Assembly: GCA_013115125.1 (NCBI GenBank)
Contig: JABANN010000017.1
Coordinates: 1-64,000 of the forward strand
DNA from: Perkinsus olseni
Lineage: Eukaryota
Direction of reading: 5' to 3'
DNA: 64,000 nucleotides
Positions within the stretch are counted from its first letter, which is position 1. Each line of letters begins with the position of its first letter. Below the pieces are notes generated by a model. It was not told the DNA's origin. It did no database searches and was given only the letters and a program-made list of their open reading frames with translations. The position numbers and the translations under genes are program-made. Shown piece after piece: positions 12,516 through 59,040 of the stretch.

Positions 12516-13066
12516 ATGCCCACTTTCTCGGGGGTTGAGGCTGTGGACTTGGTGTTGGCTGATGATGAGGACGACAATCTCGACGTGGCTGAGATGAGCC
12601 TAACTTGTCATGGTTTTGACGAGGATCGGATCAGTCGAGTGAACTGCGGAGAAGATGCCATCGATAACGTCGTAGCAGTCCTACCATAAATCGACCTACT
12701 CGCGATTCTGTTCTCTCAGTTGGAGCTGCAGGAGAGTGACGATGTAGACGACCCGGTAATCGTCCTCCTAGATCTCAACATGCCCCCAAAGATGGGCGGC
12801 GCTGAGGCTGCCGAGAGGATCCGAACGATGATGGGCAACGAGGAACTAGCTCGGTATTCCCATGCAGAAGGTCGTGGGTTCGAATCCCGCTTGCTCCCCT
12901 CAGGAACGTCATGTTGGTCTGCTGTTCCGCCGGCCGAGTGGAGGACCTCAAATCCCAAAGCTGGGCCCACAACTTCGATCATTTCTGCACCAAGCCCTTC
13001 ACGCCCCAAACCGCCGAAGAGCTCGCTACAGCCATCGAGCAATGGTGCGAGGAACAAGATGAGTAA
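12516..13066 (+). CDS. Stand-alone response-regulator receiver (CheY-like) protein, 3 exons
   Basis: Spliced product: VLADDEDDNLDVAEMSL..NCGEDAI / VIVLLDLNMPPKMGGAEAAERIR / NVMLVCCSAG..FDHFCTKPF..EEQDE*. It retains the acidic pair, the phospho-acceptor Asp (DxxMP), the Ser switch residue and the KPF motif. Confidence 0.85.
12854..12903 (+). pseudogene. 50-nt intron made almost entirely of a tRNA 3' half
   Basis: gta-ttCCCat-gcaga-aggtc-gtggg-TTCGAAT-cccgc-ttgctcc-cctcag: anticodon loop, stem, variable loop, T-arm and acceptor strand in correct spacing. Removing it restores the receiver-domain frame. Confidence 0.75.
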
Positions 13067-13296
13067 CGATGGTGTTGTTCATCATTTGCATGCCTTCTAT
13101 ACCATAACTCCGTGAAATCACGTCATCAACCCTCTCTTGCGTTTATCATACCCAAGCCTTCCTGGCTCAATAACGATTCTAGTGGACGCATGTTACTGGC
13201 TTGTTCGAGGAGGGTCCGCGGCCACTACGGAACGCAACTGCTCTCGGTCATTGAAATAATTAATCATTTAAAGATTATTAAATACCAATAACATCA

Positions 13297-15658
13297 TCAT
13301 TTCCTCCCTTTCTTATGGCGCTTCTGTTGGTTATGTCGACGTCTGGCGTTCTTAGATTCCCCTCCACCCCCCGAGCTGGCAGTGGTCGATGGCGGCGACA
13401 CTTTCTCCGCCGGAATGCCGATCGAAGAGCTGCTGCTGCTGTTCTTCCTCTCCGGCTGTGCTTTTCTCCTCGGAGAAGTCGACTTGGACCTTCCCATCTC
13501 CTTGCCTACAGTGTCGAGGGCGTCTTCTATAAGATCGTCATCCTGAGACAAGAAATACAGAAAAAAATTACTGACTAAAAAAGTCACAGAAATTCTAGAA
13601 GGAGAACACCGCCTTTCCAGTGATATCAAGAAGAGATCCGTTTTTGAATCGTCCTTACCAAGTCGAAGATATCCGCGGCATCCTCCTTGATGATCGCTTC
13701 GAACCGCTTCAGCCAATCCTTGTGGTCTTCCGTGACATGACGATGGATGCCATTCTCATTGTAGGTCTTCCCTGCAGATCCAGTGGGGCCTGGCAGGAAC
13801 AGTGAAGAAGACTAGGCGGCTCATTGACTAGTGGCTTCAGAGCAGACAGCGGAATTCACGTGTGAGGTCTAGTCCAGTTCATAACGACAAGAACATCGAC
13901 ACGCAAACGCCCTCTTTTTTTGAGTGCATCATCACATCACTGAGAAGAAGTATAGGTTATTCGTCTTCACTACCTCCTCCGCAACAGCGACACACCCCAC
14001 ACTTGAATTTCATCGCTCCGCCTGAAAACAGAAAAATGTTGTGGAACCGCGGCGAGCATGTGTTGCTACCTCTAGTGGTACGATTCGTAACAGGATGGGC
14101 AAAGTGATCTAGGAAGAGAGCTTCCAATAGAGGACCATCATCTTCATCTTCATCCTCGTCCTCATCGTCTTCAACAGTTTCCCAATCTTCATCATCATCG
14201 TCGTCGTCATCGTAACGTCCACGACGATGCAGACCACCCTAACATTACAACAGGTCAATATTCCAGTTTATAAAGTCCATTCTGTAATGATCATAGAAAG
14301 CAGAATCGATTGGCAGGAGCCCCTCATTGGTACCAGGCCTGCCATCTGAGCGGGCGAGAAAGGTCAGGGCCATACAATAGCGACCGCCAGAAAAAAAAGC
14401 CTCCCCTGGGGATGTGATGATGCCTCCACACGACCACGGCGATGGTATTACTCTGAGCAGCTCATCCAGCACCATAGCGGATATGAACTCTTCGGCAGCA
14501 TCCCTTCCTCGGCGAGAACGATGGGCGCCGAAACCACCAAGGAGCTCCTGAATACGACCGAGTCTTGCGAACTCGCAGTGCTCATCATACGATGTAGTAA
14601 GGCAAGCACCAAAAGCGTCAGCAGTAGGACGAGCAGCGGTTGGAAGAAGATACAGAAAATTGTGATTATTCGTAGCGTGTGAGGTTACCACGACTCGGCA
14701 TTAATCTTGAGTATCATCACAACGCCCCGAAGGCACGGATGAAGACCAAAGGCAACCCGACCGTTTTCCTACATCTAGGAAGATGACTTCGTCGTCCTCG
14801 TCGTCGTCATCATCATCTTCGGAGTCCACTTCGTAAAATTGCGGACCACCGAACATTCCACCACCACCACCACCACCAGCGAAGAACATCTACACGACAA
14901 AGATCGACTTCGAGAATGAATCATGAAAGATACTACCCCCGGCCCCATGAAGCCACCGCTCATGGCCGCAGCGAAAAGATTCTGAAGAAGACAAGTCACG
15001 TAGCAACATCACCATCCTTGACTACCATGAAATCGCTCATATTCTGATGCTCGAAAGCCTCCTCCCCTTCTATAGTGCCTTCAAGGTCATATCTACCAAC
15101 ATGAAATTGTCCAATGATCCGCCACTAAAGACAGAGGGCGATGAAGATGGTCGTCTCGTTTACACTACGGACTTGGCAACGAATAAGTGAAGCATGAAAG
15201 CAAGAAATTGGTATGCCATCAGCATCACCTTCTCCTCTTTTGAGAATCTCCGAGGATCTCATAGGCCTTTCCAATTTGCTGGAACCTCTCGGTCGCCTCC
15301 TCGATGATGTCCTGATTCTTGTCCGGATGCCATCTCTGAAGGAAGATGCATGACCCATCACTGATGCTGCTGCCATGGACACTCACCAAAGCCTGCTGCC
15401 GATAGGCTTTCTTAATTTCCACCTCCGACGCAGAACGAGTCAACCCCAAAGCACTGTATCTGAAAGAAGAAGAGCAAATCAAATCGTGAAAGACAAGAAA
15501 GGATATGACGAGCCAATCGCGTTGGCAAGAGCCCGAGAAGCATCACTCCCGAGACGCTGTTCGGAGAGCGACAAAACCCGGAGGGTAGAATATTACAGGC
15601 ATCGAGGGTCTCCCGGTGATGGTGGTGGGGCGTTCGTTGTACCACAGCCGACAGGCAT
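13297..15658 (-). CDS. DnaJ/Hsp40 J-domain protein, multi-exon
   Basis: [62 protein letters not shown] motif present, followed by G/F-rich and acidic segments. Confidence 0.9.
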
Positions 15659-15829
15659 TGGCTCAGCAACAAGGCGGGAGGAGGAGGAATACGACGCCTA
15701 GTCTACAAGGTATGCGCGGCGAGTCCCTAGCGACCACACAAAAAGACGGACGGCGGCCCGAACGTTACATGAACACAACGCTGGAGGTGATGATGATGCG
15801 TTATCGCTTATGATGTTAGCATAGCGTCA

Positions 15830-17533
15830 TTAATTATTCCCAACAGTCACGAGCCTCGCATACTGCAGCCAGCACTTGGACGGCACTCCCTCTCTGTCGC
15901 CCTTATACAGATGCCGGCGGACCAGCCTACACACAACGCGGGACTCCAATGGGGTGGCCCGACAAGGCAGGGTACCGATCCACGGTGATGTTGCGGAGGT
16001 GGAGGAAGTAGGCACCCAGGTCCTCGAGGTCGTCGGAGGAGATCTTGCTGAGGTCCGTCTCTTCCCTTAGGAGAAGTAGGGTACCTTCACCAGGTGGCAT
16101 CAGAACGGCCAACCCCCCGGTCTGTCATGCTACGCTTCCAGTCATTGATAGACTCGCCACCTTTATCGGCATCAATAGAAGCATCTTTGAGGATCCACAA
16201 CAGCTTGTCCTTCGACAGCTTACCCGAGTCGGAGGTGCCACTGCCGTCTGAAGCAGTGGGAGGAAATGAGAACGCACACCAGCAACGGCGATAACTAACA
16301 ACGAGCAACGAAAAGTGTGGTATTAGGGAATACGATCGGAAGACTCTTGAAGGTTGCAAGGAGCTCTCCTTCCTTAAAGACGAGGACCTTCGGAGAATCG
16401 ACATTCATATCTTCGTTCCTCTGACTTGACATAGCTCACACCCACTACTCCAATCACCGCCATACACTATGAGCTGCTAAGCAGGGCAATATGTACCATT
16501 GCCTTCGACCCTGATGATGCTGCTGACACGGGCACGCTGACCAGCCAGTCATTCAAACTCATACGAGGCGTTAACTGTACAGGCAGCCGAAGTGGCCAGC
16601 ACCTGCCATGTCTTTGGCATCGCCCTCGGTGTCGTGATTCTGCATAGCGTCCAGGGTGAGGCAGAGGCATCGATGAATCCAGATCATGAGGTAGGTCATT
16701 ACTCGGTCGCAATTGTCCATCGTGCGGAATCCTGCAAGACAGGAACGGGGCGTCCGAAGAGCTCATCAGAGGCCCACCGGAGCTCACTGTCTCGCAAGTG
16801 GGATCCCCCATCCCCTCCACGGTACGTTCCCAGTGCCAGAATGTCAAGGCGGAAAGCCTTCAAGGCCTCGTCAACAATATCTAGGTAACCTGAGTTCACC
16901 CAGAGTAACCTCAAGATACCCGTCACGCGCCCCGACGAACAACTATATGAACCCGCGTCCAGCAGGTTCCACCACGAGCGAGGATAGGGCTCCTCTTCAC
17001 CACTACGGGCAACGACGGTCGTCACCACGACCACGATGGAAGTACGAGCACCGTCGCGGCCTGTCCCAGCTACCGGGCTCCTGCTGCTTCCAGTCCCCCT
17101 CAACACTGGGCACGCTAGAGTTCCTCGTATTCGACTTGACTGGTAGAATCGGGACGCTACGCGAAGAAGTATGAGAAGTGAGTCGGACGGTCAACACGAC
17201 CCACCCGCACACATAACGACATCTCACTTTCAGTGAGCTGAGCCACTCAGCTTGATGGCTGTGATACAGCATGAGAGAAGGGAGCCTCAGAGCCTGTTGG
17301 GAGCACAAGAGTGCATCACCCGGCTCCCATAGTGAGTCTGCTTCCCACCCACTGTCAGCCCTACACTTCAACGCAAGGCGTTGTAAGTCTTGAATGGGCG
17401 AACAGAACACCCACGGCCAGACGCGACTTGCATGCGGGTCCAAAACTGAGGCCCTACGGCCCATGACTCCGCGACACCCTGCGTGCGTTGCCCTAGCAAA
17501 CAGGGTCCAGTATTCACCTTCAACCTTCGTCAT
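15830..17533 (-). CDS. Hypothetical protein(s), multi-exon
   Basis: Series of protein-like ORF fragments flanked by GT/AG sites (e.g. YLDIVDEALKAFRLDILALGTY, EDLGAYFLHLRNITVDRYP); no family recognised. Confidence 0.4.
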
Positions 17534-17790
17534 GCCTGACGAGATAGGACAACCACTGGCGAGATGCCGACGTGGTCTCTCACGGACAGCGATGCTCTAG
17601 GCACTCATGCAAAGTGCAAGCACAAGAGAGAATTCGCGCGCTGTAACTTTCCAGCACGAGGCACGCATTTTCCGCGGAGATTATGGTGATGGTAGGCGGC
17701 GGCATTGAGAATCCCTCGAGGCTCAGCCAACCTCACTGACGCCTCCAGGACTAAGCACGGGCGTACAGGATAATAAAGTTACGGTTATTA

Positions 17791-20314: not shown

Positions 20315-20363
20315 AGTCCAACTTAGCCGTACCGTCGGCCCGACGGTATGGCTAAGTTGGACT
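20315..20363. repeat. 24-bp-arm inverted repeat with a 1-nt spacer (one G/T mismatch)
   Basis: agtccaacttagccgtaccgtcgg-c-ccgacggtatggctaagttggact. Confidence 0.9.
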
Positions 20364-21579: not shown

Positions 21580-24085
21580 TCAGCGCCAATCCGTCGGCAA
21601 GAAGAAGGAGCGCGACGGGGTCGTGGAGGTATAGAGAGCGACGTCACTTACATTAAGCATACCAGGGAGGTTGCCGAAGGGCGGTGGTAGTTCTGGCGGC
21701 TGTAAAGTCTGCGTGTAAGAGTCGGCGATCTCGTTGGGCACGTAAACGCTTTTGGCCTGCTTCTCTTCTTCACTGCTACTGCTGCTAGAGGGGGAAGATT
21801 CCGAGGACGACTCCGAAACAGTATCATCCGATTCCTGGTCCTCCGATGAACCATCCTTCGAGCTGTTGTTGCTGCTGCCATCGCTACTGGAAGCGGAGGA
21901 ACTGAAAAATGCAATACGAGTGACGCCCAACTGAGTACGTCAGCCCACTCTAAAGAAGCTAACTCCGATCCGGACTGCTCGTCGTCCTCCCTAATGTTAT
22001 CAGTACCGTCATCACCGACTTTATTTCCACCGGAGCCTCCAGGCACGGACTTAGCCTTGGAAGACTTCTTCCTGACAGATGACGAGGATATCACCAATAC
22101 TACTGCTGATGATGCTAATCATCAAGAATAGTACTACGCTTACTACTGTAAGCACACACTACTATTATCACCACCATTACTATCACTCCCACAGTGGGAG
22201 AGGTGTTCATAGCAGTGGAGTAATAGTAATACTGTAGTAATAGTATTACTCGCAGCGGATAGTAGTGGTAATCCCACTGTCNNNNNNNNNNNNNNNNNNN
22301 NNNNNNNNNNNNNNNNNNNNNNNNNNNNNNNNNNNNNNNNNNNNNNNNNNNNNNNNNNNNNNNNNNNNNNNNNNNNNNNNNTGGAGTAATAGTAATACTG
22401 TAGTAATAGTATTACTCGCAGCGGATAGTAGTGGTAATCCCACTGTCTACCACTAACACTACTGATACCCGACCCCCCTCACTACTTCAAAGGATATAAA
22501 CATTTCTATGAGTATCACTGGTTACAACGGACACTGTTCAAAGCACTGCTAGCATTCTCCTCCCATGATGACGGTCCCTTCTACTTTTTCTTTTTCGCTC
22601 TTTCTTTCTTCTTCTTGGCTCTCTCCTTCTCCTTCCTTCTGCGGTTTTCCTTCCGTTTTTCCTCTTTCTCCTCCCTCAACGCCCCGAACCTCCGTTTCCG
22701 ACCAGGGTCAATCGCCGGATGTCGGTGCCTGGGTCGCGGCTTCAACTGCAGAGGGAGGTATCCGAGAGCTTCCTCTGGGCAGGTTGGGACGGCGGGGACC
22801 ACCCGCACATCTGAGAAATAATAGTCCACCCCTGAGTACGACACTGGTCCTGAGACTTTTAAGCGAGAACATTAATGTGGGCTCCTTCGGCGACCACCAC
22901 GCCATCCACCAGTGACCAAACGATGCTCGCTGGTCGGTGGATGCCGATACAGCAGTCTGCAATGACGAATAAAATGCAACATGCAAAAATGAGGCCACTA
23001 GACCGCCACGCCGACTTGAGGCCGGGGTACTTTGAAGTACTGAGCCAGCAGAGTGCCTCGAGTCCTAGCTGCTCGCGATTTTCGGTCCCTACTTCAGACT
23101 CCACAAAGAAAGGTCCTTTGTCAATGGACGAATATCCCGACTTAGTGATCTTCGGACCTTTCGCGTACCATGCGGCATAACAGTCTCAATTGATGATCCG
23201 TCTCTTCGTTACAGATTGCATGCTGCGGAACCGCGGGAAATCTTTCAACTGGCGGCGGAGTGTAATGGCCGTATATCTGCTGCGCTGTGATACTCCGGCG
23301 AAGTTTAAGGCCCAGTTATCCTCCACAGTGAGCGGTATACCCCACAGATCAGCTCTCAAAATTACACTAACAACACGCGGCAGCCGACAGCAGTCGGATC
23401 ACACCCTCTTGCCCAGTTGACCCAACGACCGGGGATATACGATTCGTTGAATTTAAAACTGATTCTTGAAGCGCCCAGCCGAAGTGACTAACGGCATGCC
23501 GGGACTGGCTGTACGGAGGCACATTCCAAGTCCTGTTTCCCACTAGTACTACAACACTCATACTAAGCACAGCGAGGAAGGGTCGAGCGACCGTAGACCC
23601 CCTGCAGTACAAGCAGCCGTTTCGTCTCCTGAGCTGAGGTCTCCGTCGTCACGGGGTCGACTCGGGAGCATCCTGAAGCCGTTCTGCAATGGCTCTATCC
23701 TTTCACGTCTCATTGGAGGCATATCTAAGGTCGACCCGTGCACTTCGCATAATAGGTGACCCTGTAGTACCATAAAGATTCCCGTACATTTGTTTTCTTA
23801 TCATCCTGTCCTCCTTCCTCAGCTGTTCAGCTGTGGCTGGCTCCTGACTGTCCAGGAAGAGGTCAACCTCAGGCAGGCTGGGCTTGGGAGGCTTCCGTGG
23901 TGCCGCTACAACGTTGGCAATCGGCAGCCCCTTGCCGCCACGCCACGGAGGCCCCCTAAGAAGCAAGCTTCGACCTAAGATACGCCACTCGCGTACCCCT
24001 TCTTAGCTAGAGGTACACCGCCGCCCTTTCCCTTGCCGACCCCCTTCCCTCCTTTACCCCCGCGTCCTTTACCAACAGCATTCAT
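21580..24085 (-). CDS. Hypothetical protein with a G/K-rich N-terminus and K/E- and S-rich low-complexity regions; spans an assembly gap
   Basis: MNAVGKGRGGKGGKGVGKGKGG.. splices to LLRGPPWRGGKG..; later segments are EEKEEKRKENRRRKEKERAKKKK and SSSASSSDGSS..PTDWR*. Confidence 0.45.
22282..22381. other. 100-N assembly gap flanked by an identical 66-nt duplication
   Basis: 22216-22281 is identical to 22382-22447. Confidence 0.95.
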
Positions 24086-24330
24086 GTTGATAACCTGTGA
24101 TCTTATCATACGCAATTCAAATCTCGCTACGCCATGCTGATCGATATCACTCGCTTATCAAATCTTGCGTTGTATATATTCTTATCATCCACGATCGGGA
24201 GCCCTTACCGCCGTGTGGCTTGATAGGACCTCTTCAGCGTCTGCGTGTGGTGGGGAGCCTTCTTAGCATAACCTAGGAGTCGCGTTATCGTTAATACCTC
24301 TACTCAGCAGTTGGCAGTCTTGATCTGAGT

Positions 24331-27300
24331 ATGAGTACAGCTGGTGGAGCGTATCAAGATGGGACTGGACCTCGAGAAGGGGGGCATGCAGGCATCACCA
24401 TCGCTTTGCCAGCCCATCATCCTCTTTACCCGGGGGACTTAGCCGACATGTCGCCGTTACGACACTCCCTCTCCCGGCCTGAGAGAAGACAATCGGTACT
24501 AAGGCAAGGCGGGAAGGGTCACTTAGTGTTGGTATTCAGTCTATTAACGTGCTGGGCTTCGACCTGTATGATGCTGTTGAGGTCGAACAGAAGGGTTGGA
24601 GGGGCGCCAAGGAGTGGGTGCCCGGCACGATCGTGCAGGTGAATGCTCATAACAACACCTTCGACGTAAAGGTAATAAGGATATCTTTCCTCCCGCACGG
24701 CGAAGAATCTCGAGACAGGTCTTGAAACCGAATCAAGAGGGAGAGGTGTTGGAGAACGTGAGCCCAGTGAGGATGAGGCGCATTGCGGAGTCAAGGCACC
24801 CTCACCAGCAGAAGGGCCGCGATAGCCCTCAGTGTAATCCCACCACCACCGGCGCTCAGTCGGGCGATGGCGCGTCTTCAGTGGGTCCCGTCCCGGGAGA
24901 TTCTCCAACTCACGGTGGACAAGACTTTTTGAAACAACGTCATTTGGGAGCCGCGGACGCCTGTGAGATCATGGACGAGTTCAACTTCCAGATGCAGGCC
25001 AGTCTGTTCACTTCGAAGGTAGCCTTACAGTGAGGGCCTCACGTCGTATCATGCTAGTCGGGTAAGGTACTCAAGCAGCTTGATTCGGTCCCGGAGTCGG
25101 ACTTGATGGCGGTGTCTCCCTGTGTGAAGTCTCTGGCACATGTGAGAGGTAGTGAAGGGGGGCGTATCGTGAGTAGAGGGGGTGCTCTGGTGGTGGAAGA
25201 ATACTCGATCTGGGCTGCTCGATCGTCTCTGGTCGGTTCACGAATCCTTGAGTGGTTAACTCCTCTTTGAGGGTGTCCTGTACGTGCATGGGTGCTGTAT
25301 GTTGCAGAGAGGACGAGGAGTCGAGTGGAGAGCGGCGAGGGCCCCTTGCTGGACCGCTTCTTCTTCCAATGTGACACGGACGCGGCAGCCGGCCAGGCTT
25401 CCACTTTCCCTACTAGTGCGCAAGTGAGTTATTAAATGGCGTTGCTGAGGATCGAACCGGGGACCTGTTGTAGGTCATGAAGATGCTGGAGAGCATCACC
25501 GACTTCCACGCCAATTGTCCCTTCACGAACTCGGGTGGAGTGGCGGACGTCGCGATGGGCACCAACTGTATCGTAGCTGATCGTCACTGTGAGGAGGTAA
25601 ACTGAGCTATCGCGTCGCGCGCCAAAAAACTCGCTATAGCCTGACCGAATGGAGTCTGGTGTCTTGCTCCTCAGATTTGCAGTCCTGAGGCGATGGTACG
25701 GCTTCTGGATAAAATGTATGAGCTGCTCGAAATGGAGGCGCCGGTGAGCTCGCAGGCTGTCATAGTGACGATCCAGGTTCGAATCCGGGCTGGTGTCTTT
25801 TAGACCGCCCTTATATCGGTGACGGTACCAGCGGACGGTCGGTTGGTAGTGGTAGGAGACACTCATGGTCAGCTGGAAGATGTCTTGTGGATGCTGTTCA
25901 AGCATGGTGTACCCAACAGAAATAACGTGTAGTAAATATAGGATGTCGGAACTAGGGATCGAACCTGCGCGGGTCATAGATACCTTTTCAACGGCGACAT
26001 TGCTGATCGGGGAGGCCACGCTTTGGAGATCTTCACCTTGCTCTTCCTCTTCAAGCTACTATGTCCACAGAGTGTAGGCTTCTTGTCGTAATCCAAAGGT
26101 CCCTGGTTCGATCCCCACGCCCGGCAGGTATACATTCTCCGTGGCAATCACGAGGACGATTACTGTAACTTGAACTACGGCTTCCTTGCTGAACTCAGAC
26201 ATAAATTCGGTCAAGTTGAAGGTGGTCGGATGCATAAGGACTTCCTCAGGGTACACCACTCTCGGGCACTATCTTAGCTCGTACCACACCTTGCCCGCAT
26301 CAGGTCTTTTACAGCCTGCCCCTGTCATGCGTGATCGATTCCTGGGATGGATACTATCGCTGCCAACAAACGCATATGTTGGTCCAGCTCAAAGTTGGAT
26401 CATCCCCAGTAGCGGTGACGGACGTTCCCGGGCAGCATAGGAGAGTGGTAATGAGGGGGCGTACCGCGTAGCCTACCTGCTCTCCCCTCACTGCGCACCC
26501 GTCTCTTCCCGCAGCTGTGTCAGTGAGCACTTCATCATTCGATACCGATAATATGCTTTGGCGCTCGCCGCTGTACTCCCAATGGGAATTATCCTTATTT
26601 GGCTTCATGTTACAGCGGTCGATGGCACGGGAGGTGTACTCTACAGGTGCCCGTAGTGCTTCGTGAATGTTCGGGCGAGGACACCTCAGACAGCAGCTCG
26701 AGCGATGACGACGCGGATCTGAGCGCAGAGAATGGTTGGTATCAGGGAGGGGTGTCCGAAGAGAGGCTAGTGTTCGATAAGCGTGTTGGTGTCCGAGGCC
26801 TGAATGAAAATGGCGATACTGAGGTACAGTGGGGCGGTACTCTTCCGAGTGCATCCAAGCACTTCTGCTGCTGCTGATGCTGATGGTGGTGGTCAGATCA
26901 AGTGGTCTTCGGGAGACATCTGGACCTACGTATCGCCTCGCCTCATCGTGCTTCATGGTGGTCTGCCGATGCACCCGGGCTCGGGCTCGCCGATAAGCAC
27001 TCAAAGACCCACCGGAGCTTTTGCTTCCTTATTCTCGTAAGAGCAGTGTGTATAGCCAGTGTCGTCGAGCCTGTGAGTTTCCTCGAGAAAGGTCGTTGGT
27101 TCGATTCCCTCGCCGACCATTTTCCATTTTAGGGGCTCCTCGGCGATGGGGTCACAAGCCGGCGGCAGCAGCAGCAGCCAGGATGACGATGGGAGGAGGT
27201 GTGTCCTTCTCAAGTACTTCCATCAGCTCCCGAATCGCATGAGGATACCGAGCTCACCGCAAGGAGTGTTCGAACAGTGGATGTATCAGATCCTCTGGAG

Positions 27301-30300
27301 CGATCCAAGGTCATAATGAGAGGGGTGGTGGGCGTTACCCTTATCTATTCTTATTCGCCTCGTGAAGGGTCCGAAACTCGACAAAGCGCGATGTTTGCTG
27401 CAAATTTGTTGGTCGGAATGGACTCGGTAGTTGTTGCTGCGGTGCTCACCATTTTGAGGGCTGGTTGTGATGAGGATGAAGGGTCTCTCGTTCGCAGGGA
27501 AGTTGGTGACACGAAGGGAAGAGGTACTCCGTTCTACCCCGATGACACCGAGCTGTTCTGCGACCGGAACAACATCCACACCGTCATCCGGTAGTACCAG
27601 AGGGTCGCTGTCTGCTCCTAATCCTTGGTTGTAGGAGTCATCAGCTGCCGGCCATGCAAAGAGGATTCTCCTTCCATCACAAGCATAAGCTCATCACCAT
27701 ATTCTCGGCGAGTAACTATTGTGGAACCTCTCAGAACTATGGAGGTAGTACTGGGATCACGCGTCTCCTTCTTGAGGGGCACGTGTGTGGACAGTGGATA
27801 CTGCCGAACTGGGCTAAACGGTGTGACTGAGAAGAAAGTTCGTGACGTAAAACATGCAATAGTTGGGCCACTATGCCACTGAGCGCGAGAACGGTGGTCG
27901 AGGTATCGAAGCAATGACGAAGTGGTGGGTGCTGCCTGGGGCATCAGTTGTAGTAGCAGCTCCGGCTGCTCTCACCGCTTGGCCTAGTGGTCTCCTCTCT
28001 GCATCTTACATTCTTCCCGTTATAGCCTGTATATCGAATGGTTGTTGGCCTTGCCAGCGGTCTCACCATTGCAATTTTCTTCTCTCCATTGGTCCCCTCG
28101 TCTACACGTCTTTCTTGAACATAACCTGTGTCCTCCCCGTGGAATCGCTGGGACTATGTTCTTTAGTATCGGTATCGCTGATATACCAACAATCTTATTA
28201 CTCTCAGTGATTCTTGACCCAGAACAGTCGTAGTGCTTCAATGAGGCTTGTGAGAGAATCTCACCGTGTCCTGATCACTCGACATTTTGATCAGCTATTG
28301 TGATGGAGAAGTCTGCTTGGCATCGCCCAGCTAGCCGACCCCGTAGTTTCCCGTTTTAGGTCTTCTCATCTTCACCACGGAACTCTTCCCCGAGATACAG
28401 TATTCTCGTAACCTGTTCGAGCATTGGAGCCCTCCTCTCTCCGTCATACAAGATGTTTACTCCAAGGTCAGTCGCGGCAGCACCGTTCGAGCGCTCTCAA
28501 TTTCCATTTCTTGGTCAGCACAAGAATGCCAGTCAAGACGTACGACAGTACATCGCCAGAGAGACAGAATCGGCGCGGATGCCGACTGACATGAACAGCA
28601 GCACAAAGTGGCTGCATATCGAGGAGAAGGTCTCGGAGTACGCCATGTCACTGATTGTGCAAAACAAGAGACATCTGTGGACTAACTTGTGGACGCGGGA
28701 TGAGGATAAAACTATGAGGGTGGATCTTGCCGATTGGGAAGATGTGATAATGGCGGGGTGTGGTATCGAAGGGCCATTTTGTGATTCGATCGCATCAGGC
28801 CTGCGCCCAAGTAGTGGGGCATCAGTTCCCTTGGAGGACCCTATTCGTGCAGCTGGATATTGAAGAGGAGGATGATGGCACTGTGGACTACCTGGACTTC
28901 CTCAATAGGTTCAGAGCTAGTCTTCGGGACGAGAGTGGTAATAGGTGGGGGGCCTCTGCCGGGTCAAGGGGGCTGTCCAGCTAGACGCTTTTCCACTGAA
29001 GAAACAGCATCACCAGGATTGGCCGCCTGCTCGATTTCGTACCACTCCTCGCTGTAGGTCCCTTCGATTCCTGGCTGGCATCAGTCGTTCTTGGATTCTT
29101 TATGGATATTCTCAATGCTGATATGGCAATACAACAAGACCTGCTCACTGGGTAAGAGGAAATCTTGCTATCTTACGATTTCTCAACGCGGACTATGAAT
29201 GGTGAGTCCATCCAGGCTTCATCATCTCAGGGAACCCGGCGAGAACCTTATAAACTACGAGCAGTTCGAACGGTCACTCCGCGACAACTGTCCAGACTTG
29301 ACAATCACGCATGTACGGATTTCATCGCTCCGCTAGGGAAATAGTTCATGTTTCACTCTTTTCAGATCCAACTTGTCTGGCAAGCCCTCATTGAGTGTTC
29401 CACCCCTGAGCGCCGTCGTGCTGGCCTGGTGGACGCTCGCCAGTTCGTGTGTGCTTGCGGCGAGTTCTATCGAGCCCGATGGGTAGTAGGAAATGGGTAT
29501 TATTTTTTGCATCGCTCCGTCGTCTCAGGATCTACACGAGCCCGTCTTTTCGACTGCACAGACCTTACCGTCGGCCAATGAGGAGGAGATGCTTGAGAAG
29601 ATTATGGACTTCCTCCCGAGACTGCGGGATTCCATCGAACAGAAATATGATAATGACACTCAGGTTGGCAATGGGGGAGTGTGCATATCATCAGACCTCT
29701 TGAATTTGGCGGTGGTCCGTATCTTTCTCTTCTGTATAGATCTCGGGCGAGGTCGGTTGGACCGAGTTGGTTGCACTCCTAAGAGTCTTCGTTTCCAAAC
29801 TACTGTCTCCAGTTTTTAGATGGAATTGCATTTTTCCGTCGTCTGAGAGTTTGCGATTTCTTGGCTGTTTCAGCGATTCTTCGAAGAAAAAATAGAAGAT
29901 CCCGCAAAGAAGAAGATTCCCGGCGCGGTCTCTAATGAAGGTCAGTCTATCATCCATCAGCGCACCACCACCACCGTCATTCATTTCCACAGACTTCGTC
30001 AACGCGTTGACCGCCGAGCTTCCCTCTTTGGGTATCACCGAGCTACCATCGCGCAACTTCCTCGAGCTTACCGCTCGCATGATGGAATCTAGCAGCGCCA
30101 CCAGCAACGGCCATCCGGCCGGCCGAGGAGCTCGCCTGGTCAGCTCAACCAACAGCGGCTACGTATCTTTGTTCCGCTTCATGGCTACACTGCACGTCGA
30201 TGGTACGGAGGCTGGCCGGGTGATGGCTCAGAAGATCATGGAACATAGCTGCGCGGCAACCTACTTCCACCGGAATGCGTTCAAGTGCGCATGTGCGCGG

Positions 30301-31241
30301 CTGGATCCGCAAAACTGTGGAGAGATTTCGAAGAGGAATTTCCGGAAGGCATTCACGGCTCTTAACCAGGCCTTGGATCCTGAATGGCGACTGACAAAGT
30401 GGGGAGGGGACAGGGTGAAGCGTGGGTCGACGGGATTATCGTCAGGTTGCAAATCGACGCTGCGTTGGACCATTTCGACTGGACTGTGGATGCAGATGAA
30501 GAGTTCACTGATGGTGGGTGATGGCAGCTCATTTCGTTGTACCTGGTGGATTTGCTCAGCATCATCGTCCGATCAAGACATGAAGTCCGTGGATGAGGAG
30601 CCACCAGCTGGGCAGGCCAGGCGTCCCACGCTGGGGGCCCTATCAGCTTCCAACACCAACAGTGCTTTGGAAATGCTCAGGGGTGAGCTAAGATGCTCTC
30701 TATCGCGTTCTCTTGTAGAATTGGAGAAGGGACGGGTGTTCACCTACGCTGGTGATTCTCCCCTTCCTTAAGAAGGTGTCTTGAATTGAGATGTTCGCGA
30801 AGAGTGGTATAGAGAATATACTCAGTGAGAGAGGATACCACACTAAAATATAGACTTATACGTGATACCACACCAATGGTTAGTATGAGCATGCAAGTGA
30901 CGGAACTAAATAGGACTAAGTGGATTCAAATATAATATTATATTCTTTCTGTCAGAGCGTTCGCGGACCCGTTCCTCGGCCCGCCTGATGCTGCCACCGG
31001 GCGCGAGTACGTCCGCTCCGATGGTGTTGGACCAACCACAACCGGAGCAATTGGATCAAAAGATGTGGATAAACTACGATCAATTCTTGAGGTCATTCGA
31101 GATAGCTGATTGGAGGAAGAACAGCAGGTGGGCGAAAAGCCCACGATTACATGCATCGCTCCGCTCATTTTTTGTGACATTTTTCTCAGAGCTGGCTCCT
31201 TCGGTTGGCATCTGCTGCGAAACAGCATGTTGAGATTTTAG
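24331..31241 (+). CDS. PPEF: PPP-family Ser/Thr phosphatase with C-terminal EF-hands (PPEF/RdgC-like), many exons; termini approximate
   Basis: [61 protein letters not shown]-hand-like segments [19 protein letters not shown] and [14 protein letters not shown]. Confidence 0.88.
25424..25473 (-). pseudogene. PPEF intron containing an antisense tRNA 3'-end fragment
   Basis: Reverse complement reads aggtc-cccgg-TTCGATC-ctcag-caacgcc-a-ttt; the T-stem is partly mismatched. Confidence 0.65.
25600..25616 (-). pseudogene. tRNA 5'-end/A-box-like fragment, antisense, in PPEF intron 25597-25674
   Basis: Reverse complement reads gacgcga-TAGCTCAGTT: a 7-nt acceptor strand followed by the canonical D-arm start. 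Confidence 0.45.
25744..25803 (+). pseudogene. 60-nt PPEF intron collinear with a tRNA from the D-loop to the 3' end (Asp-like GTC loop)
   Basis: G|GTGAG-ctc-gcagg-ctGTCat-agtga-cgat-ccagg-TTCGAAT-ccggg-ctggtgt-c-tttt-ag. Confidence 0.7.
25929..25979 (-). pseudogene. PPEF intron containing an antisense Ser/Leu-like tRNA 3' fragment
   Basis: Reverse complement reads cccgc-gcagg-TTCGATC-cctag-ttccgac-a. Confidence 0.65.
26074..26127 (+). pseudogene. 54-nt PPEF intron containing a Phe-like tRNA 3' half that ends at the acceptor AG
   Basis: atccaa-aggtc-cctgg-TTCGATC-cccac-gcccggc-a-g|. Confidence 0.75.
27080..27123 (+). pseudogene. tRNA 3' fragment in PPEF intron 27037-27132
   Basis: gaa-aggtc-gttgg-TTCGATT-ccctc-gccgacc-a-tttt. 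Confidence 0.65.
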
Positions 31242-36492: not shown

Positions 36493-36598
36493 ACCAGTGT
36501 CATTTCAATTTGGCATAATCAACTTCTCGCGTTGTCAATCTTGACCGACTCGGAAGTAACAGTCCTGCTCGCCGAAGATTCCATTCACCCCATCGCCC

Positions 36599-39481: not shown

Positions 39482-40922
39482 TCAATAGTGGGGATACGCT
39501 CCGACACTCGAGTGCTGTCCAGGTTGGACATACACCGCGGGCTGACCATCAGGACCAGGCGGCGACTGACACGACACACCGTTTGGCAATATGTGAAGAA
39601 CACAAACACCCACCTGATAGTTGCTTGTTACAAAATTAGCACTGCTGTACCCAGGGGCGCCAGGAGGGGCTGATGGTGGCCCAGCACTGAACGGCGGACT
39701 GTAGTACTGTTGCTGCTGTCCGCCCGACTGCACCTGCACGAGGGGTTGACCATCCGGACCAGGTGGGGCCTGAGGCACACACAAACTATAGCGTGGTACG
39801 ATGCGATAGTACTGGGCGGACCTGATAGTTGCTGGTGGCGAAGTTGCCGCTGTTGTACCCTACAGACGGCTGCGGAGGGGGGACCGATGCGCCACCGATG
39901 ACTCTGCCTTGAATCTGATAGAGAGAGTTCTACCGTTCACCACACTGCCGTGCACGATCTCACCATAGGCCCTCGGCCAGCATTACTCCCCGGTGGAGCC
40001 GTACTTATGACAGTAGCATTCACTACAGCCGGCGCCCCGCCTCCCCCTCCTTGAGTATACGCAGTTGCTGCCGTTGCCGCTGTTGCTGGCATTGCAGTTG
40101 CTACTACGGGCTGAGCATTCTGAGGAGAGGCACTTCAATCCCACGTTGTTACCCAACAGGGCACTCACCCCATACGAACTCGTATTGGTCACGACCGTGG
40201 CCATGATTGGCTGGGACGGCTGCTGCTGTTGATGATGAGACGCTACGGGTACTGCAGTCGCATGGGCGACTACTGTCGGCGTGGGCGTAGCAGTTTTGCT
40301 GCTAGGAGTACTCGCCATCCTGATCGCTACGTTTAACGTGCCGGCCTTATTCGCCCCGTCTCGATACCTATGCATAGCCGACAATGAGCACTACCGGAGA
40401 GTAGATGTATTACAGCACGAGATCTCCTTCCCAATGTCCATGCTTGGCGATGGAGGCCATGCTCACCCGCGCTGACCCTACCTGCAAAAGATACCTATCT
40501 CATACCAATCGGTTATCGTACGCTCGAGAGGCCAGAGGAGGGTTCCATCGCAATGACTTACAAAATCGTCGGAGCTAAAGGTATCTTTGTCCCACACTTC
40601 AAAAGAGATCTCAGGCTCATCATCATACTTGAACTCCACCGACTCGTAGAATGTCGGGTTTCTTCCAACGTCTTTTTTAACCTACCGGAAAATCATTCAT
40701 CCCATCCCGGAATCGAACCTGGGACGTCAGGTTGTCAAACCTACATCAGTCTTATATTTTTTCCCGCGACCAAGTCGGACTTTGACGTATCTGACAACGG
40801 TATTGGTAATGCTACCATCAGCGAATGGTATCTTACGGATCCATCTTGCCGAACATCTCCGTATCATACAAGTCCCGAGCGTATTTGATCTCGACCTTCA
40901 CTTTCCTCTTTCCCTCGGACAT
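39482..40922 (-). CDS. C2-domain protein, paralog 2, with an A/Q/P-rich tail
   Basis: VKVEIKYARDLYDTEMFGKMDP/YVKVRLGRGKKYKTD/VKKDVGRNPTFYE..FEVWDKDTFSSDDF; same intron positions as paralog 1. Confidence 0.88.
40682..40744 (-). pseudogene. 63-nt intron of C2 paralog 2 containing a tRNA 3' half
   Basis: gtaggt-ttGACaa-cctga-cgtc-ccagg-TTCGATT-ccggg-atgggat-g..tag. Confidence 0.7.
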
Positions 40923-41107: not shown

Positions 41108-44100
41108 TCACTCGACTTCTACGATCTTGGGCGTCGGCGTCAGCTTGTTTTTATCTACGAACTTCTCTAAAACATTCATATACCTGAGGGGACGAAAGCC
41201 ACTCATCCAAATCGAACCCCACTCCGGCGTTCACCGTGGATCCAATCAAACCATACTTCATGTATGATACATGGTAGTTTCCAACGCGAACACACGCCGA
41301 CAAATATCCCCGAGCGAGAAACTTTCATCATTCAGCCCCGCAAAAAGGACAAAATTCGACCTAGCATGTCCAACGATTGTACCTTTGTCCTCCCTTCTGC
41401 CAAGTGTCGTTATGCGTGGCAGTACCGAAGCTCTCAAAGGTGCACTCCACTCCATTGTCATTACAGATGTCGTGCAACTTCGCCATATGCGACGGAGGGA
41501 CCTAAGAAAGCGAGGCACACTCGAGCCACTTCACAGGCTTGATTCCTCCGAGCGTGATGTTCGCTCCCTTACGATTTCATCCTCGGCCGCCGATAAGAGT
41601 AAAACCGGTGTCCTGAGATAGATACTGTATTTATGTATTTAAAATACACTCGATGATGAACTCCAATATACTGGTGTGACGACGATCAAATCCCCATCGG
41701 GGATAGATATAGATTTCACGGTATCGCAACACAACAAAGAAGTAAGACTTCGCCTTGATTACAAGAATGCCGTCGAAGATACAGTCTGTACTCTACAGGT
41801 GGCACGGCGCACGTTCCAACGGTATAGCCCCCTGCCCTAGTGTAGATAGATCCCCCTGCAGACTGCGTACGTCGCCAACATGTAGGCCAAAAAAGAAGTG
41901 TCTGTTACAGACAGTCTGTAGAATACTTTCAGGAGCCCAACAAAAGGAGCCCTCAACTCTGAATAACCAAGTACCGAACTGAGCAATCCCATATCCTGCC
42001 TTGTCGTGCTAGCGCCGCGGACTGCGGACCCCAGTCGGCGATCGATGTACGTTAGCTGCCGGTGATCAAGAGGATCCACCTATTGAACACTTCCAAGTAG
42101 TTGCTCGCCGGGAAAGCCTTGAAGATCGCTAGCTCGGTGTCGTCCAAGACAGCTCCGCCATTACAGGCAGTCCCCCCCTGCGTGGCTGGCATATTCCTCG
42201 TTACGATCGTTCGATGCAACCTTCTAGCTCATAGGGCCGAGGTATGCCCCTGGTTCAACCGTTGAACTTCACCACGCAGCAATTAAATTTAGGTTGCGCC
42301 GGTTTCGCATCCCAGCTCAAAATTGTTCGGCGAGTGGCTACTGTACACTCCGAATGTTGCAGCTAGGACCAATCTCTCATGAACGCGGGATTATTCCGCC
42401 GGGATAGCGCTTGAAATCCGCACTGTCTTCAGGCCAGACTGGCCTGGCCAGTGCCTTGGAGGCTCCAAAGAGAACGATCGGGGCTCCAAGTTGGAGCCCC
42501 GATCGTTTTCTCCGGGGGAGTCCCTAACAACCAGGCCCTGGCCGATACGAGCCGACCAATGTATCCCGCTTAGGTCTAGAAAATCTATTCAAACTACCGC
42601 CACCCATGCAGCATCGGGCGATGGCTGATAATCTAGCTATGCATCACTCACGATGTCCCGTCAGCGCATATACTTCCTCACCAAGAGCTTCATTGAAGCG
42701 GTCGAGAGCTACCGACAGGCACCCAGCCATGAGAGTCTCATGATGAGACGCACTGCAATGGGCTAGCTAGGAAGTAAGCGGTGCAAGCGCCTCAACCCGA
42801 TCAGAAATTAGACCGCCCAGGAACGTTTCAGTCTAATCCGCACCCGTTCGCCTACCTCTTTCCTAGTTTCTCAACATACTTATAGGTCTCCCACTTGAGC
42901 CTCAGGAACGGTTTCTTTATCCACTCGAATCGCAGGAAGGGGAATAATGAGTTCACCATTAGTGATATAGAAAGGAATGTATTCTCCAGTATGAGACCTA
43001 GAAGAAGGAGACATCGGGTTCGGCAGTACGATGACGATGCTCACCCCTGGGTGGATGGCCCTCAGCTACTAGCTTCGCAGAGTACTCTGCCGCCACAGCA
43101 CCGCCTGACATCCAAACGCTCCGATTCTTGCCACAAGAATGGCAACACGAAATTCCAGTGAATGGAAGAGGACACGGATGCAAACCTTCGGCAAAAGGGA
43201 AAGCCATCATTCAGAAAGCCTTACCGAGTGATCGACCGAAGAAAAAGATATTCTCCGGATCGACCAAATCCTGGTTGCTCTGTATCCACTCGAACAGCGC
43301 GTCCAAGTCTTGCATTATACCTGTAGAAAATCGTCGCAGCCCTCGGCCGCGGTACCGTAGGTCTCACCATCTTCACTGGGCTTGCCAGTGCTGTCACCAT
43401 AGCCTCGGTAGTCAAACGCGAGGACATTAACTTTTAGAAACTGACATGAGTACACTTCCCGCAAACACGAAGGTAACGCCAGTAGTGTTTAATGGTGCCC
43501 GTCATGATAATGAAGCCTTTATTATTGCTGCACTAATATCGCGGAAGCGCTATAGTAGCCCCTTCTTTACGAAGAGCCAGGACCCTTTTCTATGAACATT
43601 CTCCCAGATCCCAAGCCGGCGGATACTGTTTCGGACTTCCCCGTACTACCGACGCCATCTGGCGGTAGTTGGGCATCCTCAATCCCATATTCCCAGCATT
43701 AGCGTGACAAAATACAACTGTTGGCGCCGTTGACGAGTCACTCACGCCACTAGCCTGGGAAGAAAAGACAATGAGACAGCGAAGAGCACAACGGAATGGA
43801 TGTACATGGATGAACCAAGCATGAATGGTCTGACCATCGGCAGTAGCCACTCTAACATCCTCAAACTTCATTCCAAGCTCAGCCGGCGACCGCATACCTA
43901 CAGAGACCAAAGATAAGCGAAAGACACGTCGTCGGCAGCTCACCAGGGGGATTTGAAGTAACAGTGGTGAATCCCTGAACCTCGGGCATCTGAGGAGGAA
44001 GAGAGGTCACTAAGGAACGAATTGAGGAGAGGAAAACTCGGCGTTGCACTTCCCAGAATTTTACATAAAGCATCTTCTCTTGGGACGCCACCAGTATCCC

Positions 44101-44480: not shown

Positions 44481-46397
44481 ATGTATAGAAGCCTTCCTGT
44501 CTGCAACAAGATCTGCGCACGGAAGGTTGATGAGAGGAATAAGGAAATACACAAACAGAAGTTGAAAGAAATGCGGTACTATGGTTGGACCTAAGATGCA
44601 ACAACTCGTCGAGGATCTTTCGATTTGGTGTCGAGCTGCCTTCAACGGTTGAGGGCAACTCGGCACCAAATCGAACCAGGTTGAAGTTCAACCTAAGATT
44701 ATCCGGTGCTCGGGCGATCCAGGGTTCTCTGGGTCTCTGAGCTAGATCTCGATATCAACTCATGCTTCTGAGAGTATTATTGTCACAGGTCAACCGTGGA
44801 TACTCGGGAGCCCCAGGTGTGCCACTTGGAGCATATGCGAATTAACGCAAAGCGTGAGCAGCTTCTTGAAGAGAGGTACTGAGAAGAATCCTCGACCTTT
44901 CTGCTTCTTTCTATCTTCAACCTCAGATACTGCGAAATCGATAGAGAGAATCGCATCTTGCTACAGGTAACGTTGATACCTAATTTTCACGATCTCTCGA
45001 CTTTTCTGCCTTCAGAAAATGTCGGACATAATGCGTCAACCCTCGGCCACCCTGCAGTCAGCTCAGCCCACAGGAGGAGTAAGGTTCGAAGCAAAGCCCG
45101 CACTGTGGCATTGTCCCCTTAGATGAACCAGCCTGGACCAGTTAGCCTGAATAAGACCCTCAGGAAGCGAGAACTTATGAGAATAACGAGGGTAGTGAAG
45201 GCAAGCCGGAGCGAGGCGTATCTTGGGTGTCTCAGGAGAACCAGGGGATTCTAAGACGAATACAGAATGCTCAGCCACAGTATAGTCATGTGAAGTGGGA
45301 GCAGAGCTACCGGCAGAACCGATATTATCTGAGGAACTGTTGTGACCTCCCGTTTGTACTGGAGAGTCCACGCAAGGTTCCAGAGGGAGACACTACCATG
45401 CTTGAGAGAGGCGACTTGAGCGTCTCGAGGAGCCCTGAAGGCAGTGCCGTGCCGACCGCTGTGGATGGGCAGGCTGCTGATAGAAACGACCTTAGATATG
45501 TACTGAAGGAAGGGCAGAAGCTCGGCACAGGGTAGGTATTATTCGATGAGTAGGGGAAGATTTGGTATGGCTAGATACTATCTCGTGGAGATGGCAACTG
45601 ATGGTCGGACTCTGACTATATCTGCTTACGATGGAGAGTCCCAGAAGACTTTGGAGCTGATCATAAACGAGAAGAATCATCGCAAGCTGTAGGCTATGGC
45701 CCCTCAGTTGAACTGATTTATGTAGCCTAGGTACCGGGAGGTAGCTGGGGACTATGCCAAATTAGCAGCGCGATTGAGCATAGAGGGAGACAGGCTCGTT
45801 CTCCTGCCACACGAGCCCATGCAGATGCCACCCGAACTGATGGAAAATGTAATTCCTACTCTTACCGAAGCCTCAGTGGGAGGGTTGACTCAGGCGACGG
45901 ATGCGCAGCCAGTGCCACCGAGGGCTCCTCCACAGGACGTGCCGGATACTCCGAGCGAATCTCTCACTGCCGAGGAAATGGTAGGCCGCCTACCGTAGGC
46001 GTGAACGTCAATCGTGCAGAAATACAGTTGTGAAGCGTTACTAAACAAATGTGCTTCCCCGAACAAGTTTTTGTTCGCGAATTCAGGACTCCGGAATTGC
46101 ATGGTCTATCGTTACCGGTGTGTAGTCGCCGATAGACCATCCCACAGGTACGACCATCCGTCAGCTCTCCTGCCCACCACCCAGATGCTGCGAGTGTGGA
46201 TTCGGGCGGTGGAGTTCCCCCGATAGAAATAGCTGGTAAGAACCATTGGTAATTACATACGGCAATTCAGTGTTTCTCTAGGACACGTGGAGGTGGCAGT
46301 GAGCATACCAAGCTCATCAGCAGCTGGTAGAGCCCCAAGAGTCTATGTGAGAGGGCTCACGCCGAGCACTCCTAGTGTACACTCTGGTTACAACTAG
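44481..46397 (+). CDS. CFAP97/Hemingway (KIAA1430)-domain flagellar-associated protein
   Basis: EIHKQKLKEMR..NAKREQLLEER/YCEIDRENRILLQ/KMSDIM..SLNKTLRKRELMRITR/ENQGILRRIQNAQPQYSHVKWEQSY. Confidence 0.8.
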
Positions 46398-48413: not shown

Positions 48414-50697
<2,284 letters not shown>

Positions 50698-54237: not shown

Positions 54238-54650
54238 AGACGAGTGAGAAGAACAAGGAGATTTAAGAAAACTAATTTAACTCAGCTTGTGCCACCGGGA
54301 CTTCCACTGTAATTTCGTGGCGCGCGACTGTAGAAGCCACCAATGACGGCCGATGCCGATACCCCTCCGGAGCTCAACACTTAACGCAAGCCAGTATTAG
54401 TAGTTTTTGGAATGAGCAGATACGTGGCAGTCTCGGCGGGAGGGGCGTTGAGGGGTACGGAGAGATGCCAACAGTAGCAAGAAGAGGAGAATAATGCAAA
54501 GATGATCATCATCAGTCCAGCAACAACTACCACTCAGTGACGACGATGGTTCCATTATTAATCTCAATATGCGTGCACATGTCAGCCGCTACTACTAGCG
54601 GCATCAGCAGTAACCTCAACGACTATTGGCTGCTCTTAGGGTCTTATCAT

Positions 54651-55500: not shown

Positions 55501-55807
55501 TGAGTATATAGGTTACAATCTTAACAAACAACAGGGATAATAACAATAGTTATCATGCATAATCGTCGTGATCCACTAGGAAGGAAGCGTAACCGTTAAC
55601 GTTTATGAGCGATAATCCGGCTCATAGCCAATCGGGCGTGCGCTAACATCATTGTGATGAAAATACACCAACGATTATGCGCCAAACTCGACAAATGAGA
55701 CAAACTTAGTGACGTTGGAGAACATAGAAACAGAAGGCATCATCATCAACAGGCCGTACAGGAATGTTATTGTTATAATCCAAGACTCGGTGCCTCAAAA
55801 TGAGCCA

Positions 55808-58186
<2,379 letters not shown>

Positions 58187-58417
58187 TGCCTGTTGAAGAG
58201 AATCCACAGCTAGAGGTGTCAGAAAGATGTTCCAACCCATCAACCCAACAACTTCCGTCAAGGCTGTAATGTTACCGTCGAATCGAGAGGCGTCTGCTTC
58301 GCACTGAACAGTGCGGAGTTCCGCAGCACCTCAGCCGCCGTTTTTACGGCAAGTAGGTGAAGGGTGTCTGCACAGGCAACTTATACGCCCGACTGAAGGG
58401 CTGACGTGGCGGCGGAC

Positions 58418-58973
58418 TCAAAGAGCCTTCAAAGCACCAAGCAGCCAAGAATGGGCATCAGACGCGAAGCCAAGGGCACCTGAGCGGCAGAGGAGGACGC
58501 TGGTCACGGAGTAGCATGCCTGTCGATAACGCCGTGAGAATACTACAGACCTACAAGGGCTGCCGAAAGTGGACCTCCCCGTTATTACACTGGGTGTATC
58601 CTAGCCGCAGTATCAGGTCGCAATGGAATGCTATCAGCAAAGCGATACCCACTCGCTTGGCGAGAGCACGGTACTGAGGAAGAAGACGGTGATACGCAAG
58701 AAGATGGTGATACGCAAGAAGGCGATCCCTATGAGTCCACGACAAAAACAACAGCATGTAAAACAACCACAGTTGGGTAGCTCGTTAGGTCGTCATTACC
58801 AAAGACTCCTCCGCGACCGCCGCCGCCGCCGCTGCCGGCTTGGCCTCGTCTTCCGTCCCTTCTGCCTGCGATGTTGAGGACCCTACAAGGTTAAACTTGT
58901 TCATAGTGAACCAGGTGATGCCTGCTGCACCCAGGGCCGCCACAAATAGACAGAAGGCTCGGAATGGACACAT
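58418..58973 (-). CDS. Small membrane protein with an MCP(F/L)R N-terminus; 3' end uncertain
   Basis: MCPFRAFCLFVAALGAAGITWFTM..; second TM RVGIALLIAFHCDL, joined in phase 0 across an intron. Confidence 0.6.
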
Positions 58974-58983
58974 TATACAACAA

Positions 58984-59040
58984 AATACACCTACCAGGGA
59001 TCGAACCCAGGACCTCTAACTCAACGCCAACAGTCTCACC
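58984..59040 (-). pseudogene. tRNA-like fragment forming a putative 49-nt 5'-UTR intron (59039-58991)
   Basis: G|GTGAG-act-gttgg-cgttgag-ttag-aggtc-ctggg-TTCGATC-cctgg-tag|gtgt-a-tttt. Confidence 0.65.

Follow-up and report, generated by a model that had tools for sequence, protein, structure and literature searches.

The origin of new spliceosomal introns is an old open question, and the best-documented route is the insertion of introner transposons. Introners or introner-like elements are known from Micromonas, Aureococcus, Zymoseptoria and dinoflagellates. Introns are also created when filler DNA is captured at double-strand breaks, as in Daphnia and in introns derived from organelle DNA. 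In a different setting, the yeast extra-TFIIIC (ETC) sites are B-box-only TFIIIC sites that lie for the most part between genes and show conservation as binding sites. Here, a stretch of 64,000 nucleotides (nt) from Perkinsus olseni (contig JABANN010000017.1, positions 1 to 64,000; hereafter the window) was analysed, in which eight spliced introns carry a segment that resembles the 3' part of a transfer RNA (tRNA) gene, with a variable loop, a T arm containing the B-box of RNA polymerase III (Pol III) promoters, and an acceptor strand. There is about an even chance that these introns were created by the insertion of tRNA-like 3' pieces from the pool of tRNA genes and pseudogenes.

Like introners, the tRNA-like introns would be short inserted DNA, spliced from the start and present in many unrelated genes, and Perkinsus is related to Amoebophrya. 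In introners, however, the whole intron is repeated, usually with target-site duplications and often with inverted repeats; here only a core of about 30 nt was shared and neither of these features was seen. They resemble tRNA-derived short interspersed elements (SINEs) and intronic tRNA pseudogenes in their probable descent from tRNA, in the exact B-box, in a cloverleaf whose pairing is degraded and in being present in many copies in the genome. SINEs differ in having an A-box, a tRNA-unrelated body, a tail and duplications and in occupying far larger introns, whereas here there was no A-box, the end was that of a tRNA gene and the element filled a 50-nt intron. An isolated exact B-box in the absence of a working tRNA gene is also the hallmark of ETC sites; unlike these, the B-box was accompanied here by a variable loop, an acceptor-strand position and a T-run, which indicates tRNA-gene ancestry. 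As in filler-DNA introns, the pieces would have entered in either orientation, with no target-site duplication, and would be tolerated because splicing removes them; what differs is that they would come specifically from tRNA-like genes and in repeated events, for which no description was found.

Invasive intronic elements have been reported in Amoebophrya (PMC7789003). In P. marinus, five tRNA types alone are reported to account for more than 500 copies, and Dada DNA transposons interrupt tRNA genes at the TAGCTC of the A-box, leaving 3' gene parts behind (PMC3706591). The Dada system belongs to the same genus, generates tRNA-gene 3' parts and documents huge tRNA gene families. In contrast to the introns described here, Dada elements are 4.7-11 kb long and insert into tRNA genes rather than protein-coding genes, and no Dada sequence was seen at this locus; the link is a lead only. 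As part of the same lead, TAGCTC adjoins the 5' ends of the introns starting at 12854 and 25744. A nuclear-genome paper on four Perkinsus taxa has been announced as in preparation (PMC9550989). Full-text literature searches, which did not extend to Repbase, subscription journals or supplements, turned up no account of introns derived from tRNA, whether in Perkinsus or in any other organism. The tRNA-like introns are best regarded as a variant of intron creation by inserted repetitive DNA, with an insertion history that we infer with moderate confidence.

All eight segments are real spliced introns of P. olseni. The EF-hand protein phosphatase of this species in NCBI (P0001; 1257 residues) mapped exactly to positions 24331-30768 of the forward strand, giving a model of 28 exons and 27 GT..AG introns. 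Introns 6, 8, 9, 10 and 14 of this model are the segments 25424-25473 (50 nt), 25744-25803 (60 nt), 25929-25979 (51 nt), 26074-26127 (54 nt) and 27037-27132 (96 nt), and these five of the eight elements are clustered in a 1.7-kb stretch of the phosphatase gene. A spliced RNA-type contig (X9, record 17) had 3513 nt for positions 24312-30398, that is, 6087 genomic nt minus the 2574 nt of the 25 introns inside that span, and the phosphatase introns were absent from it. In record 10 of X16, a run filed as a metatranscriptomic RNA-Seq library, a 142-nt gap corresponded to the removal of 26824-26896 and 27037-27132, with the exon starting at 27133. Segment 40682-40744 (63 nt, reverse strand), in the gene for a C2-domain protein, was found as an RNA junction in both X7 and X16 (40679->40743, CT..AC, cut +2) and had depth 0 in the DNA run X1, among the 15 of 71 junctions listed in the comparison of run contigs. 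For the two remaining segments the evidence came from annotated P. olseni proteins. The exons flanking 12854-12903 (50 nt, forward strand), in a gene for a response-regulator receiver (REC) domain protein, are joined in P0005, which was 100% identical to the window, and those flanking 58991-59039 (49 nt, reverse strand), in a SIP1/Gemin2-domain gene, are joined in P0002 and P0003, which were 97-98% identical.

Each of the eight introns has GT..AG ends and, as seen from an RNA junction, from spliced-contig arithmetic or from annotated proteins, is removed precisely, as is typical of U2-type spliceosomal introns. The first-pass annotation had proposed all eight as introns, 58991-59039 only putatively, had placed them in four unrelated host genes and had counted six sense and two antisense copies; these points were confirmed, the hosts being the REC-domain protein, the EF-hand PPP phosphatase, the C2-domain protein and the SIP1/Gemin2-domain protein. 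Across the phosphatase gene (24331-30768) the splice signals are minimal: the 5' sites read GTA, GTG, GTC or GTT with little further consensus, and 17 of the 27 introns are 44-55 nt long.

Exact matches to the B-box consensus GGTTCGANNCC were found eight times in the window (8171+, 12877+, 25776+, 25955-, 26105+, 27098+, 40709- and 58997-), compared to 0.61 expected (sd 0.71; at most 3 in 100 dinucleotide shuffles). This count was consistent with the first one made by eye, of eight exact B-boxes, seven of them in the listed introns, where about 0.5 was expected. Seven of the eight lie inside the tRNA-like introns, in both orientations, and therefore carry the exact consensus of an ETC or TFIIIC site; the eighth such intron, 25424-25473, has a B-box with one mismatch. 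The B-box at 8171 is antisense within the long coding frame of an EF-hand gene, lacks AGGTC and has none of three outer stem pairs; it is a chance match in a coding exon, as the background predicts. In the two mapped genes, the 28 other confirmed introns contain no exact B-box, and a near-match was seen by eye in 41184-41382 only. Non-exact B-boxes of the one-mismatch class were not in excess (15 compared to approximately 14.4 expected), and within the window there was no excess of B-boxes outside introns. The near-match in 41184-41382, a 199-nt intron of the C2-gene region, is a degenerate B-box-like GGTTCGATTTG with no stem pairing and may be an older, decayed copy.

The similarity to tRNA was shown to exceed the 11-nt B-box, as had been claimed. 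The sequence AGGTC stands at the variable-loop position in five of the eight elements, the number originally given, and the combined AGGTC and B-box pattern AGGTCNNNGGTTC occurred five times in the window against 0.11 expected. For a tRNA covariance model (R1), 100 phage-encoded tRNAs were picked that do not have the AGGTC-plus-B-box pattern, and the model was run with filters off. Of its 18 window matches at E<=10, ranks 1-4 and 6 were tRNA-like introns: 12869-12890 (17.5 bits, E 0.014), 27063-27119 (11.0 bits, E 0.85), 58994-59015 (10.3 bits), 25738-25796 (10.3 bits) and 40706-40725 (9.7 bits). The exonic B-box at 8171 was not among these matches, which indicates that a bare B-box is insufficient to score. 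TTT starts directly after the discriminator position in four of the eight elements, including one antisense copy, in which it cannot be a polypyrimidine tract.

No element is a tRNA gene. ARAGORN found no tRNA genes in the window, and an Rfam E-value scan of the whole window gave no tRNA match; the best Rfam tRNA score at the elements was 15.8 bits, compared to a gathering score of 29. When its threshold was relaxed to 85%, ARAGORN returned 6 matches, 2 of them at the elements, and at 80% it returned 38, of which 4 fell at the elements; these were mostly noise and were not used. None of the eight elements has the complete cloverleaf of a functional tRNA gene, and the T stem is fully paired in only two of them (12854-12903 and 58991-59039). 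A-box words occurred at chance level in the window (TAGCTCAG, 4 compared to 2.4 expected; TRGCNNAGTGG, 2 compared to 1.1), and faint 5' tRNA parts were detected by Rfam and R1 at 25738-25797 and 27063-27119 only. A 5' pairing partner for the acceptor strand at a plausible distance was found only for 25744 (7/7, with three G-U pairs) and 25424 (6/7), with no consistent pattern. The signal is specific to the 3' part, that is, the variable loop and T arm, in a decayed or defective form, and is not that of a tRNA gene.

Two candidate 5' parts in neighbouring exons were rejected: upstream of 12854 an alignment with CheY showed no inserted codons, and upstream of 26074 the exon encodes a conserved stretch before the RGNHE motif. 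The stretch just before RGNHE is one that we take to be conserved in PPP phosphatases; the window provides its own translation only. In intron 7 of the phosphatase gene (25597-25674), an exact antisense A-box word TAGCTCAG at 25602 (-) follows an acceptor-like heptamer and a T6 run; this may be a tRNA 5' part and was the only one seen.

In the REC gene, the core of 12854-12903 lies in sense at 12869-12898, behind an anticodon-loop-like heptamer with a CCC anticodon (12857-12863), and gave the best R1 match. Intron 25424-25473 has an antisense core (25437-25466) with AGGTC and with TTT right after the discriminator position. The sense core of 25744-25803 (25768-25797) has an exact B-box followed by TTTT right after the discriminator position, and 25738-25797 was the only element for which an alignment, though a weak one, spanned an entire tRNA in shortened form (15.8 bits and E 7.4 with the Rfam tRNA model, over positions 1-71 of the model). 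The weakest member is 25929-25979, whose antisense core (25944-25973) has an exact B-box, no AGGTC and one of three outer stem pairs, and which was not among the R1 matches. In 26074-26127 the sense core (26097-26126) combines an exact B-box with AGGTC and is a 30-nt unit common to other loci. The sense core of 27037-27132 (27090-27119) is followed by two T-runs. Upstream of the sense core of 40682-40744 (40698-40727) there is a 5-bp hairpin at the anticodon-arm position. Finally, the sense core of 58991-59039 starts from 59015 and is cut after the T arm by the 3' splice site, which leaves the final 5 nt of the nominal core (58986-58990) in the exon.

Similarity among the elements was confined to the core. 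The seven most similar of 666 intron pairs were all pairs of tRNA-like introns, with scores of 13-18, whereas 1998 shuffled pairs, used as the null, scored at most 13.5. Introns 25744 and 40682 have an identical T arm, including an A-G mismatch, and 26074 and 27037 have a T-C mismatch in common and are about 85% alike over 27 nt; across some 30 nt the members of these two pairs are 76-85% alike. Self-comparison of the window revealed no long identity linking any of the eight elements. Among the 20 of 46 loose ends listed, contigs of the DNA run X1 begin to match the locus at 26097 or stop matching it at 26126, with different sequence beyond, which indicates that other loci carry the 30-nt unit. 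These two positions correspond to tRNA positions 44 and 73, and one of the diverging contigs continues T-rich; judged from the loose ends, the other genomic copies of the 26097-26126 unit would end like a tRNA gene. The exact 30-mer 26097-26126 had no match in JGI metagenome contigs. The shared T-stem defects and the recurring 30-nt core point to defective tRNA-like pseudogene or repeat sources and not to eight working tRNAs, and the likely source is a population of tRNA-like pseudogenes or repeats. The earlier argument that each copy resembled a different isoacceptor, and that the copies were not one family, was not supported, given the T-stem mismatches common to two pairs and the recurrence of the 26074 core elsewhere. 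By eye, the intron pairs 29313-29365/29483-29528 and 27037-27132/28467-28518 share 10-nt words, of which one is CATCGCTCCG and the other a tail rich in T, TTTCCATTT, that precedes the 3' splice site; the pairwise test singled out neither pair.

The size of the introns was compared in a set of 36 confirmed introns (27 from the phosphatase gene and 9 from the C2-gene region; 3324 nt in total), which have a minimum length of 44 nt; 23 of them do not exceed 65 nt. Seven of the eight tRNA-like introns are 49-63 nt long, and the core alone takes up 30 nt. Since an old intron plus an insert would measure at least approximately 74 nt, introns of 49-63 nt are too short to be such composites, and an origin by insertion is favoured. 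In the two mapped genes five of the six tRNA-like introns measure at most 65 nt, a size class that holds only 35% of the intron bases (P = 0.022). These sizes favour the reading that the inserted piece, in either orientation, is itself the intron, and are also compatible with replacement of old sequence. A protein-guided search of metagenomes found three homologous loci (L118-L120), all too distant to date the introns. One of these, L118 (contig Ga0214917_10001968, locus 2446-5511), is an intronless homologue of the EF-hand phosphatase that is 39% identical over residues 147-1195 (approximately 1050 residues), on a 25.7-kb contig of 45% GC.

In the most likely history behind these observations, the source material is the tRNA genes and tRNA-like pseudogenes that Perkinsus has in very large numbers. 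Short DNA pieces, or cDNA of the 3' fragments of pre-tRNAs, would have been inserted into coding exons in either orientation, and the inserted pieces would have survived because they were spliced out. Most of each intron would then be a copied tRNA-like 3' part, comprising the variable loop, the T arm with its B-box, about eight more bases and often a T-run. Given typical local intron lengths of 44-55 nt and weak signals (GTR...YAG), it is plausible that such inserts are spliced. No function is required of the inserts; they are unable to fold as T arms and are not tRNA genes. A more general proposal, whose chances we put somewhat short of even, is that fragments extending roughly from the anticodon arm as far as the terminator for Pol III could be a recurrent raw material for new introns, spliced at once by a spliceosome that needs little beyond GT, AG and approximately 50 nt. 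Of the initial idea that tRNA-derived DNA is repeatedly captured as, or into, introns, the reality of the introns and a signal above chance were established, and the sizes favour the element as the intron; the insertion itself we infer.

Several observations weigh against this history. The R1 similarity was weak (9.7-17.5 bits, with only one match at E<0.1) and was mainly limited to 22 nt at model positions 45-66, and 25929-25979 and 26074-26127 fell short of E<=10 with this model. The 5-nt stems named in the first-pass annotation are positional only: the outer T-stem pairs form in 13 of 24 cases, compared to 9 by chance and 97.7% in 423 real tRNAs. An acceptor strand with a frequent T-run had also been claimed. 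The T-runs hold to the extent of the four elements given above; two T-runs adjoin 3' splice sites and could be polypyrimidine tracts, and the acceptor end and T-run of 58991-59039 lie in a coding exon that is conserved in P. chesapeaki and are consequently not tRNA-derived. The A-box look-alike in the exon before 12854 is a coincidence according to the CheY alignment. No target-site duplications were visible by eye at the junctions, without a formal test, and no flanking direct repeats were longer than 2-4 nt. Intergenic DNA contained no elements, and passive capture would predict some, though the window is gene-dense.

Under a rival reading, an active mobile family, SINE-like or introner-like and derived from tRNA, has copied itself into genes, bringing or creating its own splice sites, and the eight introns are diverged subfamily members. 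The T-stem defects common to 25744/40682 and to 26074/27037, the near-identical copies of the 26074 core elsewhere in the genome and the exact B-boxes, as in Pol III-driven SINEs, are what such a family would leave. The likeness, however, ends at the core within the window, the introns differ from one another in their 5' parts, and copies of 26097-26126 elsewhere in the genome diverge on both sides; the whole intron is consequently unlikely to be the repeat unit, as it is in introners. Of the features of a tRNA-derived SINE the B-box is present, the A-box is at chance level and duplications were not seen by eye; terminal inverted repeats are likewise lacking, and the self-comparison connects none of the eight. 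We rate a mobile family of this kind as unlikely. Turnover of old introns, in which breaks were repaired with tRNA-like filler and deletions while selection held the length near 50 nt, would draw on the tolerance of introns for insertions and deletions, and it accommodates lengths of 49-63 nt at or just above the local optimum, an orientation split of 6:2 that is no different from random, and the longer 96-nt intron 27037-27132 with other sequence around its element. It would need near-total loss of the original intron in seven of eight cases, targeting in proportion to length predicts long introns and not the observed bias towards 65 nt or less, and intergenic DNA should carry the same filler, of which none was seen in the B-box and R1 scans; we rate it as rather improbable.

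Selection for the B-boxes themselves, as intronic TFIIIC sites of the extra-TFIIIC type that shape chromatin or local transcription and for which tRNA ancestry would be the origin only, could account for seven exact B-boxes beside degraded T stems, for the one-mismatch class not being in excess and for five elements being clustered in one gene. The missing one-mismatch class also fits a divergence of approximately 11% or less per site, near the per-lineage divergence of the related pairs, and the elements were ascertained by their exact B-box, which biases the comparison. For these two reasons the missing class was rejected as evidence of selection, and, as there was also no excess outside introns, selection on the B-boxes appears distinctly improbable. 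Chance, or a splicing motif that resembles the B-box, is effectively refuted. One exact B-box, that at 8171, is a chance exon match, and TCGA-containing words were seen by eye in several other introns, where they were not counted; but none of the 100 shuffles reached the eight copies observed, the 28 other confirmed introns have no exact B-box, the motif occurs in both orientations, and the AGGTC flank and the common 30-nt unit would be left unexplained.

If insertion of tRNA-like pieces is the true origin of these introns, a second route, from tRNA-gene-derived DNA, would widen the picture of intron origins and would link the birth of introns with the unusually amplified tRNA genes of Perkinsus. 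There were eight tRNA-like introns in 64 kb, and six of approximately 71 RNA junctions in 19.6 kb; if the window is typical, several percent of all introns, or thousands genome-wide, would be of tRNA-like origin. Several Perkinsus genomes and polyploid haplotypes exist for comparisons of presence and absence, in which intron birth would then be directly studiable. If the B-boxes bind TFIIIC, they would represent an unusual, systematic placing of Pol III factors inside genes transcribed by RNA polymerase II. If there is no intronic excess genome-wide, the elements would be no more than the remains of pseudogenes in a genome where tRNA genes abound.

Other features of the window were also recorded. 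It is eukaryotic DNA of about 52% GC, with a single 100-N gap at 22282-22381; perfect 66-nt direct repeats at 22216-22281 and 22382-22447 bracket this gap, which looks like an assembly artefact of scaffold joining. Positions 1-2640 (+) contain an unbroken, intronless frame of 880 residues with a strong match to MMPL (an RND transporter family; E 2e-69), which may have come from bacteria or be a recent retrocopy; the neighbouring genes have one intron per 150-250 nt. A tandem array with a 32-nt unit (8.4 copies, 93% matches) lies at 57420-57688, upstream of the SIP1-domain gene region. Near-perfect long hairpins, palindromes of 35-57 nt, were found at 42464-42516, 20315-20363 and 44619-44675, the first of which is a weak, sub-threshold look-alike of an Rfam microRNA family.

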